Source of the DNA: a virus
Lineage: Duplodnaviria > Heunggongvirae > Uroviricota > Caudoviricetes
Direction: 5' to 3' (one strand)
Length of the DNA stretch: 12,434 bases
IMG/VR virus record: IMGVR_UViG_3300023203_000736
A model generated the notes under the pieces. The model saw only the letters and a list, made by a program, of their open reading frames with translations. It was not told the DNA's origin and searched no databases. Both the position numbers and the translations under genes were made by a program. Shown piece after piece: positions 1-9,287 of this stretch. The first letter of the stretch is position 1. Every line of letters begins with the position of its first letter.

Positions 1-1077
1 ATGCGCGTCCCCAAGCCCTTTTACGTCAAGAAACGCAAGACCTGGTACGTCCAGATCGACGGCAAACAGCACAACCTCGGCAAGGACAAGACCGAGGCCA
101 TGAACCAGTACAAGGAATTGCTGGGCGACAGCGCCAAGGTTGCCGCCGAAAACGTCAAGGCCACCGCGCCGGTCCTAGACCTCTTGGCCGAGTTCCTGGC
201 CTGGAGCGAGCGGAACAATGGCGAGAGCAACCACGAGTCGCTGCAAAACCACATTTCACACTTCTCGAAATGGCTGTCTGAGACGGGGCAGGGTCGATTG
301 CGGGTCCGCGATCTCAAGCCCTTCCACGTAACCAGATGGTTGGACGCTCGTTACAAAAACGGTGCGTCGGACACCACCCGCGCCGGGGCCATCCAGTGCG
401 TCAAACGACCGTTCAACTGGGCCGTCGATGAAGGTTACATCCCCATCAATCCAATTGCGCGCATCAAAAAGCCCCGTTACACCCCACGGGGCGACGAGGC
501 ATACATTACTGAGGAGCAATTCAAGGCTCTGATCGAGGCCGCCCGAGACACCTACAAGCCCTACGAGGCCGAGCCGTTCGTGGACTACCTGATGATGGTC
601 CATGATACCGGCTGCCGGCCCCAGGAGATTCGTCAGGTGGAGGCCCGGCACTTCGACGCCGAGAACCGCCTGTGGCGATTCCCGGTCAAGGAGTCTAAAG
701 GGAAGCTGCGTGGGCGGATCGTCCCATTACAGACAGAGCGGTCCTTCGAGATATGCCGCCGACTGGCCCTGAAATACCCCGAGGGACCGATCTTTCGCAA
801 CTCAGACGGTAAGCCCTGGACGGCCTACGCCGTTAGCTGTCGGTTCAAGCGGCTGAGAAAGAAGTGTGACATCGACGCCTGCGCCTACAAGTTCCGGCAC
901 ACTTTCGCCACGAATGAGATTCTCAAGGGCACCGACCTGGTGACTCTCAAGCACATGATGGGCCACGCCGATCTCCAGATGCTCGGCAAGGTCTACGAGC
1001 ACATCCAAGCGGTCAAGAAGGTGTCGGAGGCAGCGAAACCCAAGAAGCCTAAACGCCAAGATACCGACGCCGCTTAG
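1..1077 (+). CDS. int: Tyrosine recombinase / phage integrase (358 aa)
   Basis: Catalytic motifs TGCRPQEI (R), ESKGK (K), YKFRH (Y/H-x-x-R), MGHAD (H) and VYEH (Y). It also has an N-terminal arm-binding-like segment (WYVQIDGKQHNLG) and a core-binding segment (KRPFNWAVDEGYIPINP). Confidence 0.96.
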   Translation: MRVPKPFYVKKRKTWYVQIDGKQHNLGKDKTEAMNQYKELLGDSAKVAAENVKATAPVLDLLAEFLAWSERNNGESNHESLQNHISHFSKWLSETGQGRLRVRDLKPFHVTRWLDARYKNGASDTTRAGAIQCVKRPFNWAVDEGYIPINPIARIKKPRYTPRGDEAYITEEQFKALIEAARDTYKPYEAEPFVDYLMMVHDTGCRPQEIRQVEARHFDAENRLWRFPVKESKGKLRGRIVPLQTERSFEICRRLALKYPEGPIFRNSDGKPWTAYAVSCRFKRLRKKCDIDACAYKFRHTFATNEILKGTDLVTLKHMMGHADLQMLGKVYEHIQAVKKVSEAAKPKKPKRQDTDAA

Positions 1078-1812: not shown

Positions 1813-2231
1813 TCAGCGAAAATCCCGCAGGCGTACCATACGCCATTGCTTCCGAGGCACATTGCGTAGCCAAAGTACCGGCAACGGCCGTTGACGGCCG
1901 ACCAATGGCCGGGTGACAGCTTCCAGGATCGGTACATCTCCCTGGCAGCGGCCTCTTGGCTCTGGCCAGGCCAGCTTTCGTTCACGACTTCTGCGAAGGT
2001 ATGGCACTCGGGAATCTGAGGACGCATCCGAGGATAGCGCAACTGCTCCCACCAGAAATGGCCCTGTCGATGAATCTGGGCCTGGTAGGCGGCATGGGCC
2101 TCAGCTTCGGCCTGGAGGACCGGATGCACCTGGCCGGTCATAATCGACCGAACCTGGAGATCGCGGCCGGTTTCAAGAAGCTGTTCGTTTGGCGTCATCG
2201 CCAGAAGCAACACGGCAATCAAATATCTCAT
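1809..2231 (-). CDS. Secreted CAP (SCP/PR-1/antigen-5) domain protein (140 aa; start re-called at 2231)
   Basis: SD GAGG upstream and ATGA overlap at 2228-2231. Hydrophobic leader MRYLIAVLLLA. CAP motifs AEAHAAYQA..GH, AEVV..SW, WKLSPGH and FGYAM....GVWYACGIF. Confidence 0.85.
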   Translation of the reverse strand: MRYLIAVLLLAMTPNEQLLETGRDLQVRSIMTGQVHPVLQAEAEAHAAYQAQIHRQGHFWWEQLRYPRMRPQIPECHTFAEVVNESWPGQSQEAAAREMYRSWKLSPGHWSAVNGRCRYFGYAMCLGSNGVWYACGIFAE

Positions 2232-6969: not shown

Positions 6970-6989
6970 AGAGCTAGACTCCTAGCTCT
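6970..6989. other. Perfect 8-bp inverted repeat AGAGCTAG-ACTC-CTAGCTCT covering a stop codon
   Basis: Seen directly. It spans the TAG at 6982-6984, with no U-tract on either side. Confidence 0.6.
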
Positions 6990-7689
6990 TCGATTGCCTC
7001 GACTTCTTTTTTGCGCTAGGCTTGGATCGCCTTGCAGGCTTGGATCGCGTCGATGTACGCCGCGCGGCGCGCTTCTTTAGTGCCTTCGCCGGTTCCTCCA
7101 CAGGCGTCACAAGAGTGTCTTTCTTCGCGCTCGCTGAACAAGTCACAGGGATCGTAGACGAGTCCTTTTCCCCGGCAGGCGAGGCAGGGGCAGGTACAGC
7201 CAGTCTCGGCTCCGTTGGCTCAGCAGAACAGTCCGAATGCGTTGTAAGGTTGTCGGGAGTTGGTTCGCATTCGTCTTGGTACTTTGCTGTTCGTGGTCGA
7301 GTCAGAATCTCCAGCACCTTGCGAGGCAGCTTCTTCCTTGCCCAAACGGGGATGCCCATTGGCAGCTTCCCGAAGATTTCGAGCAGGCCCCGGAGTCCGG
7401 TTGCCTCGCAGGCTTTGGTCCAGAGGCGCTTGTGGCGTTCGCAATCCTCTTGGGCAGCTTTGAGCGTCTTGTAAAGGCGGGGTTTCGTCACGAAGTCCCA
7501 CATCTCGAATGATTTGCCTTCCTCGCCGCCGTAGTTCGGGATGATCGTGCGGACGCACGCCTGGAAACGAGCCGGCACTTGCACTCCCCAGACTTCACGC
7601 CTCCAAGTAACTCTGTAGCCTTCCGAGGAGAGCCAATACCTGCGAATCTTCTGGCTCTCGCCCCGTTTCTTCTTGCGATTGAAGTCCAT
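6982..7689 (-). CDS. Hypothetical protein with Pro/Ala/Thr linker and Lys/Arg-rich C-terminal tail (235 aa)
   Basis: TGATG overlap with the upstream gene; globular-looking N-terminal half; tail AKALKKRAARRTSTRSKPARRSKPSAKKKSRQSKS. Confidence 0.8.
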   Translation of the reverse strand: MDFNRKKKRGESQKIRRYWLSSEGYRVTWRREVWGVQVPARFQACVRTIIPNYGGEEGKSFEMWDFVTKPRLYKTLKAAQEDCERHKRLWTKACEATGLRGLLEIFGKLPMGIPVWARKKLPRKVLEILTRPRTAKYQDECEPTPDNLTTHSDCSAEPTEPRLAVPAPASPAGEKDSSTIPVTCSASAKKDTLVTPVEEPAKALKKRAARRTSTRSKPARRSKPSAKKKSRQSKS

Positions 7690-7880
7690 CAGCCTCTTCC
7701 GCGATTCTTTCGTGGATGCCCATCACGGTAGTTGTCAAAGACCGCCGGAGCTTTTAACAACACCCGGCGGACTTTGCGCCTGCCACACTTCCGGCAGCGT
7801 GTCGGTCGGCTGGCGTTCATCTTCTGGAATGCCTCAGTCCGATCGCCGCACGCACTGCACTCCAGGTCATACCAGGGCAT
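7689..7880 (-). CDS. FmdB-family (CxxC...CxxC) Zn-ribbon protein (63 aa; start re-called at MPWYDLEC)
   Basis: MPWYDLECSACG...E......CRKCG..KVRRVL fits the MPxYEYxCxxCG...CPxCG family signature; the ATG is 2 nt after the upstream TAA. Confidence 0.85.
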   Translation of the reverse strand: MPWYDLECSACGDRTEAFQKMNASRPTRCRKCGRRKVRRVLLKAPAVFDNYRDGHPRKNRGRG

Positions 7881-7882
7881 GG

Positions 7883-8827
7883 TTAGACGCCGCAGCACAC
7901 CCTTGGGTGGCTGTTCATGCGGCTGGTTGTGCAGCCGAGCGTGTTGAGCTTCGGAGCGTCCATCGCTTTGGCGCGATTGCTCAGCTTTTTCTCCAGCATC
8001 CGCTTCAACTGGCGGCTTGCCGTCTCGGCCAGATCGCACTCGATCGGCTCGTAGTCGTCGGTGTCCATGTCATCGAGGCGTTCGATGAACTCCTGCACGA
8101 ACTCGTCGTCATCGTAGGAATCGACGATGCTGATCTGCTTGTCATCGAGGGCGAGCGGGAGGCGAACGACCTCAAGGCCGGCTTTGCAGCACGTCGTCCT
8201 TATTCCATAGAGGGAGTCTGGCGTCTGCTGAACGACGATGTACTCGCCGCTCTCGCCGTCGCCCTCATCGCACTCCAGCGGAATCTCGATGAACGCGAGC
8301 TTGCCGACGTAGCTGGGATTCGCGCCGACCATCTCCTTCGGAAGCATCGAGTCCTGAATGTCGCCGACAACGGCTAGGTCGCCGGCAAAGAGTTCGTCAA
8401 ATACCCGGTCCAAGGCGGAACGGGTTTCCTTGCTCGGCGTTGGCCGACTCACGGCCGTCGGCTGGTCGCCATCAAGCGATTCCAAGCGGGCTAGATTCCG
8501 CTCGACGCCACGGCGCGTACCGCTGAGCGCACTGGGAGGGAACAGGAAGGAGAACATGGCGCGTCCTTCTTCCAGTCCACGAATCACGGACTCGCAACGA
8601 TCCTTTACGCGCCGGATCAACGCCGCATCCTCGCGGCTGTCGTAGACCACTCCCACAAGGCCCGGACCCGAGAGCGGGATCGGAGGAAAGACCATCCCTT
8701 CGGTGCCAGGACGGGTCGGCACGATCTCGATATGATCGCAGTAATGCGCCGTGCAGATGTAGTCGCTGCAACGGCCGCCCTCGCCGGTGGGCGAGATCGT
8801 CAGAATCTTTCCTCGAAGGTTGGTCAC
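7883..8827 (-). CDS. Hypothetical protein with a strongly acidic C-terminal segment (314 aa)
   Basis: SD AGGAG before the GTG; long ORF filling the gap; no family recognised. Confidence 0.8.
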   Translation of the reverse strand: MTNLRGKILTISPTGEGGRCSDYICTAHYCDHIEIVPTRPGTEGMVFPPIPLSGPGLVGVVYDSREDAALIRRVKDRCESVIRGLEEGRAMFSFLFPPSALSGTRRGVERNLARLESLDGDQPTAVSRPTPSKETRSALDRVFDELFAGDLAVVGDIQDSMLPKEMVGANPSYVGKLAFIEIPLECDEGDGESGEYIVVQQTPDSLYGIRTTCCKAGLEVVRLPLALDDKQISIVDSYDDDEFVQEFIERLDDMDTDDYEPIECDLAETASRQLKRMLEKKLSNRAKAMDAPKLNTLGCTTSRMNSHPRVCCGV

Positions 8828-8845
8828 GGTCGATCTCCTGTTGGG

Positions 8846-9022
8846 TTAGTAGCCCCGCCCTCGATTGCGGCGAGGATGCAGCGGGCTGTAGGTGTTACGG
8901 ATCACCGGCGGCCGGCGAAGGGCCAGAAGCTCGGCCATCTTGTGCGATGCGCCGTTCTTGCGGCACAACTCGTAGTGAGCCTGAACCTTCTCGTCATCGC
9001 TGATCTTGGGATACTTGGACAT
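8846..9022 (-). CDS. 58-aa small protein ending in HPRRNRGRGY
   Basis: Not in the ORF track. Sequence MSKYPKISDDEKVQAHYELCRKNGASHKMAELLALRRPPVIRNTYSPLHPRRNRGRGY. It fills the 8828-9044 gap and shares a tail motif with the 7689..7880 protein. Confidence 0.75.
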   Translation of the reverse strand: MSKYPKISDDEKVQAHYELCRKNGASHKMAELLALRRPPVIRNTYSPLHPRRNRGRGY

Positions 9023-9044: not shown

Positions 9045-9287
9045 CTACGCGACAGTCTCGTACTGGACACCGAGGGGAACGATCACGACCGCCATATCGA
9101 GGTTGTGAACATTCACTCGGCGACCATCCTTGTTGAAGCCCGACACGTAGGCACCCTTGCTCACAGTCCCAGGGACCACCTGCTGGACCTTCATTGTCGC
9201 CTGCCACATGCGAGAGCCACGGCGCACGGGATAAAGGATGGAGCACCCGGCCTTGATCTCACGGCCCACACAATCTGTCGCTGTCAC
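9045..9287 (-). CDS. Small beta-rich (SH3/KOW-like) hypothetical protein (80 aa)
   Basis: SD AAGGAG, GTG start overlapping the upstream TGA; D..G.EI..G..I.YP.R.GS pattern. Confidence 0.75.
   Translation of the reverse strand: MTATDCVGREIKAGCSILYPVRRGSRMWQATMKVQQVVPGTVSKGAYVSGFNKDGRRVNVHNLDMAVVIVPLGVQYETVA

Follow-up and report, generated by a model that had tools for sequence, protein, structure and literature searches.

Docking peptides of the kind exemplified by the C-terminal tip of SSB and by the beta-clamp-binding motifs are acidic and hydrophobic (D-D-D-I-P-F) or follow the pattern Q-L-x-L-F, and they are carried by many different enzymes. R-G steps with aromatic and basic flanks are a typical feature of proteins that bind RNA, DNA or acidic pockets. 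Encapsulin cargo-loading peptides are another case of a C-terminal peptide common to unrelated proteins in a virus-related system. Canonical members of the FmdB family carry a short conserved motif, F-K-G-S-G-F-Y-x-T-D-Y, after their zinc ribbon, together with a Ser/Lys-rich tail; no functional study of this family was apparent in the literature found under its name.

The stretch of DNA analysed here (12,434 nucleotides; hereafter the window) encodes a 63-aa FmdB-type zinc-ribbon protein and a 58-aa helical protein that have a common C-terminus, Y-x3-H-P-R-[KR]-N-R-G-R-G. Like the SSB tip and the clamp-binding motifs, this tail is a short conserved terminal peptide found on unrelated carriers among replication and recombination genes, but it is strongly basic, longer (13 near-invariant residues) and confined to two tiny scaffolds. 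With RG/RGG boxes and the AT-hook it shares the R-G-R-G step, the aromatic and basic flanks and the position beside a zinc ribbon. In contrast to an RG/RGG box, however, it has one di-RG unit and invariant non-basic residues (Y, S, P, H, P and N), which make it a specific motif and not a low-complexity region. The R-G-R-G step is present in 33 of the 45 tails and the remainder have R-G-[KSTQM]-G; among the forms that define an RG box, a lone di-RG is the weakest. An AT-hook (R-G-R-P) could be rejected, as the core reads R-G-[RKS]-G and is followed by proline in none of the 45 sequences. Encapsulin loading peptides differ from the tail in their consensus, in their linked shell gene and in their cargo, the 'cargo' here being only 35–42 residues long. 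No published description of the motif was found and the motif strings were absent from the literature searched, in line with the original prediction, whose author knew of no described family with it.

Two carriers of a common tail

The zinc-ribbon gene (positions 7689–7880, minus strand) encodes a C4 protein with the M-P-x-Y-x-x-x-C-x-x-C ... C-x-x-C ribbon of the FmdB family, and it scores above both curated cut-offs: 47.5 bits against 34.4 for PF09723 (Zn_ribbon_8) and 51.3 bits against 31.3 for TIGR02605 (CxxC_CxxC_SSSS), the latter match covering residues 1–44 only. A 116-aa form of the ORF with a GTG start was rejected because every homologue begins with M-P-x-Y-D. The gene ends in a stop codon that overlaps the start of the following gene. 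As in canonical FmdB members, the ribbon is followed by a short conserved motif, but in the phage proteins this is Y-S-P-[LM]-H-P-R-[KR]-N-R-G-R-G; all 30 phage zinc-ribbon sequences lack the canonical segment, whereas FmdB paralogues encoded by the hosts (genomes G001 and G002) have it. Judging by these sequences, the tail was not borrowed from the host paralogues, whose tails differ. Among the cultured phages in INPHARED there was only generic zinc-ribbon similarity, with the tail absent, and neither the 58-aa protein nor the 80-aa protein described below had a match.

The 58-aa protein (8846–9022, minus strand) consists of a helical N-terminal part of roughly 35 residues and the tail. It matched no Pfam, NCBIfam or PHROG family. 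Membership in FmdB was dismissed since the protein has no zinc ribbon, no Pfam or NCBIfam match and no profile similarity before the tail, and a zinc site was rejected because Cys and His are not conserved across the family. The tail is kept in homologues with 71–95% identity. The dN/dS ratio of this gene is about 0.05 in the N-terminal part and in the tail alike; with purifying selection of this strength, the ORF is very likely translated. Of the three observations that the original prediction had named as counting against it, none was made: homologues of both proteins have the motif, there is no sign that the 58-aa ORF is untranslated, and full-length paralogy left no signal.

The zinc-ribbon protein ends in KAPAVFDNYRDGHPRKNRGRG (7692–7754, minus strand), followed by a TGA stop codon, and the 58-aa protein ends in RPPVIRNTYSPLHPRRNRGRGY (8849–8914, minus strand), followed by TAA. 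Both minus-strand ORFs and their shared C-terminal motif were as originally described, and the tail coordinates given then were essentially right, though a few bases short. A BLASTP comparison of the two window proteins gave an E-value of 6e-7 (single comparison), with the signal coming from the tail. The tail is basic and conserved over 13–22 residues, with the core Y-S-P-[LM]-H-P-R-[KR]-N-R-G-R-G-[YH]; the family-wide consensus, [KR]-[PA]-P-[AV]-x4-Y-S-P-[LM]-H-P-R-[KR]-N-R-G-R-G-[YH], shows a closer agreement between the families than the window pair does, the window zinc-ribbon tail being a variant with R-D-G in place of the usual S-P-[LM]. Core position 3 varies (K, R, A, V or H), as does position 4 (N, G or T). 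From these variable positions and from the missing S-P-[LM] in the window zinc-ribbon copy, part of the motif is evidently dispensable. Some variants terminate in G-[SK]-G-I-G-R-K, and between 0 and 11 residues separate the motif from the stop codon.

Several lines of evidence show that the tail is a real module, maintained by selection on the peptide. It is retained in homologues of both families. Across loci, each of its invariant residues is encoded by two to six different codons and synonymous sites vary freely, so selection acts at the peptide level. This had been proposed on the basis of five codon differences between the two window tails (CCA/CCT, CGA/CGC, CGC/CGA, GGA/GGG and AGA/CGG), all of which are correct, and the proposal is borne out by the homologues. 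In total, 9 of 27 core bases differ between the two window tails, which, together with the use of all synonymous codons across loci, rules out a recent DNA duplication or gene conversion; the same base differences and synonymous variation rule out that the tail codons form a conserved element of RNA or DNA. The dN/dS check suggested earlier for the tails gave 0.27 for the zinc-ribbon tail, beside the 0.05 of the 58-aa gene. The mean pairwise identity of the tail core is 77%, a figure partly inflated by sequences gathered in motif-based searches, and it is likewise 77% between the zinc-ribbon and helical families. Elsewhere the mean identity is 43% (zinc ribbon) or 46% (both the 80-aa neighbour and the domain of the 235-aa family).

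One gene slot in phages of Planctomycetota

The tail genes occupy a slot that follows the gene for an 80-aa beta-rich protein and usually precedes a member of the 235-aa family. Individual phages have in this slot the zinc-ribbon gene only, the helical gene only (L001, L012 and L040) or both (the window and L014). The zinc-ribbon and helical proteins are thus interchangeable occupants of one slot, and where a near-invariant short peptide persists while its carrier domain is swapped for an unrelated one, the peptide is the functional unit. The slot lies in an early operon, close to methylase, exonuclease or integrase genes, on the replication side and not among the structural genes. When loci of the 235-aa family were chosen without regard to the tail, a tail gene was found just upstream in 24 of the 25 contigs; one of these 24 genes had been overlooked by gene callers. 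In many phages the zinc-ribbon gene directly abuts the gene of the 235-aa family and at many loci its stop codon overlaps the start of that gene. The gene 3' of the tail gene differs from locus to locus, belonging to the 235-aa family, the 314-aa family or others.

The most constant neighbour is the 80-aa protein (9045–9287, minus strand), whose family has an invariant loop, Y-P-x-R-R-G-S-x-M-W. Its gene is directly upstream of the tail gene at 25 of 27 loci, with gaps of -8 to about +70 nt, its stop codon often overlapping the start of the tail gene, and it is retained even in distant phages where the 235-aa family is missing (L067). The family appears to be distantly related to DUF7205: its profile matched an L067 protein with a precomputed PF23835 (DUF7205) match (E = 8e-19), and an Atlas feature search with the 80-aa protein gave DUF7205 with a score of 0.92; the window copy itself had no Pfam match at E ≤ 1.

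The 235-aa ORF (6982–7689, minus strand) is the usual downstream neighbour. In its AF2 model (pLDDT 84), a conserved beta-sheet-plus-helix domain is predicted for the N-terminal 135 residues or so, and the remainder is basic, of low complexity and overlapped by a conserved ORF in another frame. A fold search with the N-terminal domain gave nothing convincing (Foldseek E ≥ 0.03, VIA Z ≤ 4.3). Its homologues form 115 clusters, all unnamed and all from Planctomycetota wherever the source is named.

Between the two tail genes of the window lies the gene for a 314-aa acidic protein (7883–8827, minus strand; pI 4.7), which only some phages have in the slot. The acidic segment noted previously in this protein is real and comprises residues 226–265. 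In the AF2 model (pLDDT 67) the conserved C-terminal half (about residues 167–290) is predicted to form a small beta barrel and a helical hairpin, with fold matches to LSm/Hfq-like barrels at Z-scores of 6.5–6.8, under the level considered trustworthy, and to generic helical hairpins. The original prediction treated this protein as a candidate partner of the tails. However, of 27 distinct loci only 10 have a relative and 17 have none, so the protein is not an obligatory partner; moreover, the zinc-ribbon gene often abuts a gene of the 235-aa family instead. Probably, therefore, the partner of the tail is not its acidic neighbour.

A search of 1.84 billion representative proteins with the tail profile retrieved just 24 clusters, all of 50–81 aa and all of the same two types, in which the part before the tail spans 35–42 residues; no third type of N-terminal domain, no enzyme and no long protein with the tail was found among these representatives. 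The clusters come only from prophages and from phage contigs linked to Planctomycetota. The pattern search in IMG/VR that had been proposed at the outset, run with a degenerate DNA motif, returned 14 matches, of which 13 are the C-terminus of either protein type and one is due to chance; this is far beyond random expectation. A pattern scan of a genome collection yielded three true matches, all in Planctomycetota MAGs, and three chance ones. The phages concerned are temperate and form an uncultured lineage that infects Planctomycetota (Thermoguttaceae, Pirellulales). Mimicry of the C-terminus of a host protein was considered and rejected, as the prophage copies were the only matches to a relaxed motif in two Thermoguttaceae genomes. 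Given this narrow distribution, the tail is a well-defined lead and not yet a discovery.

Possible targets of the tail

The tail makes up one third of each mini-protein and is its best-conserved portion, from which we infer that it is the working end of both proteins, a role that fits better than that of an address label. The reading that we favour, with a probability of roughly 45%, is that two non-homologous, interchangeable mini-proteins act through the tail, which would bind a slowly evolving host machine or nucleic acid. The N-terminal modules (the zinc ribbon and the putative helical hairpin) would only present the tail, and the contact would be made by its invariant residues (Arg, His, Tyr, Pro and Gly). 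The target would change more slowly in evolution than the proteins of the phage itself, the likeliest choices being a central machine of the host cell or a nucleic acid (RNA or DNA), and the binding may contribute to regulation or to an early takeover of the host. The 77% identity of the tail core, as opposed to 43–46% for the neighbouring proteins, points indirectly to such a slowly evolving target. The composition of the tail, with two R-G steps flanked by Tyr and His and with a zinc ribbon as one carrier, would suit an RG-type protein that binds nucleic acid or acidic pockets. As a counterpoint, the near-universal coupling to the 80-aa gene fits a phage-encoded partner equally well.

We consider it possible, if unlikely, that the tail docks on such a partner encoded in the same operon. 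The likeliest candidate would be the 80-aa DUF7205-like protein, which stays next to the tail gene even in L067 where the 235-aa family is missing; others are the N-terminal domain of the 235-aa family, given the overlapping stop and start codons at many loci, and, when present, the barrel and acidic helix of the 314-aa family, whose members or look-alikes directly follow the tail gene at 10 of 11 loci (counting L040 and the unconfirmed L069; the exception is L014, with a 300-nt gap). In addition, 31 of the 45 tails contain a class II SH3 ligand pattern, P-x-x-P-x-[KR], and the neighbours resemble small beta barrels. These barrel assignments are weak (Z ≤ 6.8), however, and the window zinc-ribbon tail, which reads D-G-H-P-R-K at this site, lacks P-x-x-P. 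More generally, the tail core is far better conserved than the neighbours, whose identities go down to 28–46%, no co-variation was seen, and both the 235-aa family (in L067) and the 314-aa family (at most loci) can be missing.

In its most specific form, our preferred reading of a host or nucleic acid target would make the tail a new host-takeover peptide of phages, its 13-residue Arg/His/Tyr/Pro motif engaging a conserved Planctomycetota machine (ribosome, RNA polymerase, nucleoid or replisome) from either mini-scaffold. This version is doubtful as it stands. Phages of Planctomycetota are almost unstudied, and a conserved early-gene peptide would be a ready probe for host targets.

The original prediction saw in the tail a portable docking or addressing tag on different cargo domains, which might direct them to a virion or a compartment or serve as a modification site. 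Such a tag, leading its cargo to one of these places or to an enzyme that modifies it, would be comparable to the loading peptides of encapsulin cargo. A strictly conserved C-terminal motif on two unrelated N-terminal parts would suit such a role, and the variants that terminate in G-[SK]-G-I-G-R-K faintly recall encapsulin loading peptides. Yet the variety of cargo did not materialize: among the 1.84 billion proteins only the two tiny, mutually replaceable scaffolds bear the tail, and they share one slot. Their genes are in the early replication-side operon near the integrase and not with the structural genes, and neither an encapsulin shell-like gene nor a linked gene for a modifying enzyme was found among the neighbours at the loci read. 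This makes an addressing role improbable.

Whether the carriers are related before the tail bears on the origin of the module. They could be full-length paralogues of great age; in that case the helical protein would derive from a zinc ribbon whose cysteines disappeared, and the tail would be common by descent. Both families frequently start with M-P-x-Y-[DE], the window pair has C-R-K-x-G in common before the tail, and the two proteins use the same gene slot. In hhalign comparisons, however, the tails of the two families were matched with a probability of 99.2% (E = 1e-19), whereas for the parts before the tail, a comparison of only about 35 columns and hence of low power, the probability was 0.3%, with no homology detected, and 55 of 100 column shuffles reached an equal or better global score. 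Nor does the helical family conserve its cysteines. We therefore regard paralogy as quite improbable, and the unrelated N-terminal parts of the original prediction stand.

Hardly credible is a function of the nascent tail within the ribosome, as a peptide for arrest or coupling that would adjust how the next gene is translated: the tail ORFs are very short, their stops abut or overlap the next start codon and conservation is in the peptide rather than the RNA, but the spacing from motif to stop is not fixed, the following gene is not constant, the motif is unlike known arrest motifs of the R-A-[PG]-P type, and conservation of the zinc-ribbon ligands and of the helical part implies selection for a folded product.

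The carriers define two previously unnamed groups, a subfamily of FmdB-type zinc ribbons and a 58-aa family that gene callers sometimes overlook.

The shared C-terminal tail

As originally predicted, the 63-aa zinc-ribbon protein and the 58-aa helical protein of the window finish in the same tail, Y-x3-H-P-R-[KR]-N-R-G-R-G (BLASTP of the pair, E = 6e-7). All homologues of the 58-aa protein (71–95% identical) end in Y-S-P-[LM]-H-P-R-R-N-R-G-R-G-Y and most zinc-ribbon homologues (67–78% identical) in Y-S-P-M-H-P-R-K-N-R-G-[RKS]-G; the tails of the latter are closer to the 58-aa tail than is the window's own zinc-ribbon copy. A degenerate DNA pattern of the motif retrieved 14 stretches from IMG/VR, 13 of which were the C-terminus of one or the other protein type, and one IMG/VR contig (L014) carries both tail proteins in the same arrangement as the window. 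Against one-genome-per-species contigs, the same pattern gave three true matches (two Thermoguttaceae MAGs and one Planctomycetaceae MAG) and three chance matches, none of them C-terminal.

No other element of the module is as well conserved as the tail core, which has a mean pairwise identity of 77%, both overall and between the two families, compared with 43% for the ribbon and 46% for both the neighbouring 80-aa protein and the N-domain of the 235-aa family, although motif-based sampling accounts for part of this gap (77% versus 43–46%). A divergent subclass of tails ends in Y-S-L-M-H-P-R-H-M-R-G-[QM]-R (loci L033, 2749-2949, and L057, about 1500-1683; protein P0028); the Thermoguttaceae genome G002 contains two prophages, one with a tail of this subclass and the other with a canonical tail.

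Gene neighbourhood and likely target of the tail

The window is apparently an arm of a temperate phage or a prophage, in which an integrase gene (1-1077, plus strand) is followed by a long series of minus-strand genes, including those for an NDK-like protein, a DnaQ-type exonuclease, two DNA methylases, a dUTPase and a dCMP deaminase. Both tail genes lie in a tightly packed block of five minus-strand genes, which encode, in order, the 80-aa protein (9045-9287), the 58-aa protein (8846-9022), an acidic 314-aa protein (7883-8827), the 63-aa zinc-ribbon protein (7689-7880) and the 235-aa ORF (6982-7689). The successive spacers are 22, 18, 2 and -1 nt, the stop codon of the zinc-ribbon gene overlapping the start codon of the 235-aa ORF.

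Gene context, obtained by tblastn and profile searches for 27 distinct loci, revealed one conserved slot with the order methylase, PHROG 8231 protein, 80-aa protein, tail protein(s), optional inserts, 235-aa family, exonuclease. The zinc ribbon is the sole occupant of the slot in most loci and the helical protein in L001, L012, L040, L070 and L072; both are present in the window and L014. Among 25 contigs fetched via the 235-aa family, with the tail not used for selection, 24 had a tail gene just upstream. The 80-aa protein, whose gene is the most closely linked of all to the tail proteins, is encoded directly upstream of the tail gene in 25 of the 27 loci and is retained in a distant phage lacking the 235-aa family (L067), where it has a Pfam DUF7205 hit. 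It carries an invariant loop, Y-P-x-R-R-G-S-x-M-W (family alignment A5), and belongs, as a distant member, to the DUF7205 group of phage proteins. The slot region appears to be an insertion hot spot: in L029 a 377-aa ORF that looks transposon-associated (TnpB-like; 1790-2923) separates the tail gene from that of the 235-aa family, and further inserts are an SPFH/Band-7-like gene (L014 and L070) and a gene for 190–202 aa (L010 and L038).

All phage-encoded neighbours drift to 30–45% identity whereas the peptide stays fixed, and this near-constancy would be most simply explained by binding to a target that hardly changes, either core host machinery or a nucleic acid. The tail has two Arg positions at which Lys never occurs, an R-G-R-G step, flanking Tyr and His, and many fixed non-basic positions, features that would suit a peptide with a specific docking function better than a basic tail without specificity. 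The main alternative, that the tail docks on the 80-aa neighbour or another protein of the operon, is favoured by the gene coupling and by the occurrence of P-x-x-P-x-[KR] in 31 of the 45 tails; the lack of co-variation speaks against it.

Scaffolds, selection and range

Residues 1-44 of the zinc-ribbon protein form a bona fide FmdB-type ribbon (PF09723, 47.5 bits; TIGR02605, 51.3 bits), and on the strength of this ribbon, though not of its tail, the protein is a member of the FmdB family. The 58-aa protein, with no match in family database searches, falls outside every described family. The parts preceding the tails had been considered unrelated, and profile–profile comparison agrees: it gives the tails a probability of 99.2% (E 1e-19) and the preceding parts one of 0.3%, and the global score of the latter was equalled or beaten by 55 of 100 column shuffles. 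That test is a weak one, covering only ~35 columns, so very old paralogy of the two proteins is kept as a minor alternative. The helical family is not a cryptic zinc ribbon, because its Cys and His residues are not conserved. The ribbon also matches, far below the cut-off (E 2e-7), the N-terminal part of NF053663 ('RPWMISH domain-containing protein'), another family that takes its name from a motif situated after an FmdB-like ribbon, so that pairing such a ribbon with a short conserved motif may be a design that recurs.

In the 19 loci compared, two to five codons are used at each of the invariant Y, H, P, R, N, R, G and G positions, and six for the nearly invariant Arg that comes next. This variety rules out a DNA repeat, gene conversion or an RNA element under the tail and bears out the proposed selection on the peptide. 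The dN/dS of ~0.05 in both halves of the 58-aa gene argues that this gene is very likely translated; the values for the zinc-ribbon gene, at saturated dS, are 0.27 (tail) and 0.45 (ribbon).

A 32-column tail profile searched against 1.84 billion representative proteins (E <= 1e-3) found 24 clusters, all of 50–81 aa and of the two types, except for one 81-aa protein (P0010) in which the first half of the 80-aa protein seems to be joined in frame to the second zinc knuckle and the tail; no enzymes or long proteins with the tail were found in this set. Cultured phages showed generic ribbon similarity only. In the two searchable host genomes the motif is confined to prophages, and the hosts' FmdB paralogues have a canonical F-K-G-S-G-F-Y-x-T-D-Y segment in place of the tail. 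No description of the motif was found in database families or papers, and the tail resembles known portable terminal peptides in principle only. We conclude that it is a real, undescribed and narrowly distributed peptide module. The idea of a portable tag survives as a real peptide on two unrelated scaffolds, but probably not as a label for cargo: as these only two scaffolds are tiny and mutually replaceable, the tail would be the working end of both proteins. In L017 (2956-3054), the open frame with the tail has only 32 codons, possibly through truncation, frameshift or a MAG assembly error. A tail-bearing zinc-ribbon gene in L038 and L039 (NCBI and ENA contigs of identical sequence, both among those fetched via the 235-aa family; about 1890-2084, plus strand) was left uncalled by gene callers, and the family is therefore under-counted in protein databases.

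The acidic 314-aa and 235-aa families

The original prediction, whose observation is confirmed and whose interpretation is partly supported, is unsupported in its choice of the acidic 314-aa protein as partner: that family occurs in only 10 of the 27 loci (314-family or 314-like genes were seen in 11, L040 and the unconfirmed L069 included), and is therefore optional and cannot be a general partner. Its gene, almost always directly 3' of a tail gene, comes in two forms, a long one after the helical protein (six loci) and one of ~200 aa after the zinc ribbon (five loci). In a model of moderate quality (pLDDT 67), the conserved C-terminal half (residues ~167-290) is predicted to form a small Sm/LSm-like barrel followed by a helical hairpin carrying the acidic stretch; the best fold matches, the EDC3 LSm domain and an archaeal Hfq-like protein, score below the trustworthy level (Z 6.5–6.8).

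In a good model (pLDDT 84), the N-domain of the 235-aa family is predicted to be an antiparallel sheet that packs against a long helix. No fold match to it was convincing (Foldseek E >= 0.03; VIA Z <= 4.3), the weak ones including AP2, WGR and integrase-arm domains. Under the basic, low-complexity C-terminal third of the ORF lies a second reading frame (7016-7290, minus strand, frame of 7558), whose conserved product carries two zinc-finger motifs of the form C-x-x-C-x-G-x-G. This frame is intact in L001 (8198-8638) and L014 (3113-3460), where it is better conserved than the 235-aa frame; in the window it is broken by a single in-frame TGA (7220-7222) right after F-C. This could reflect two overlapping genes, a frameshift, a nonsense mutation or recoding of the TGA. 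Homologues of the 235-aa protein end at 130–155 aa in several phages.
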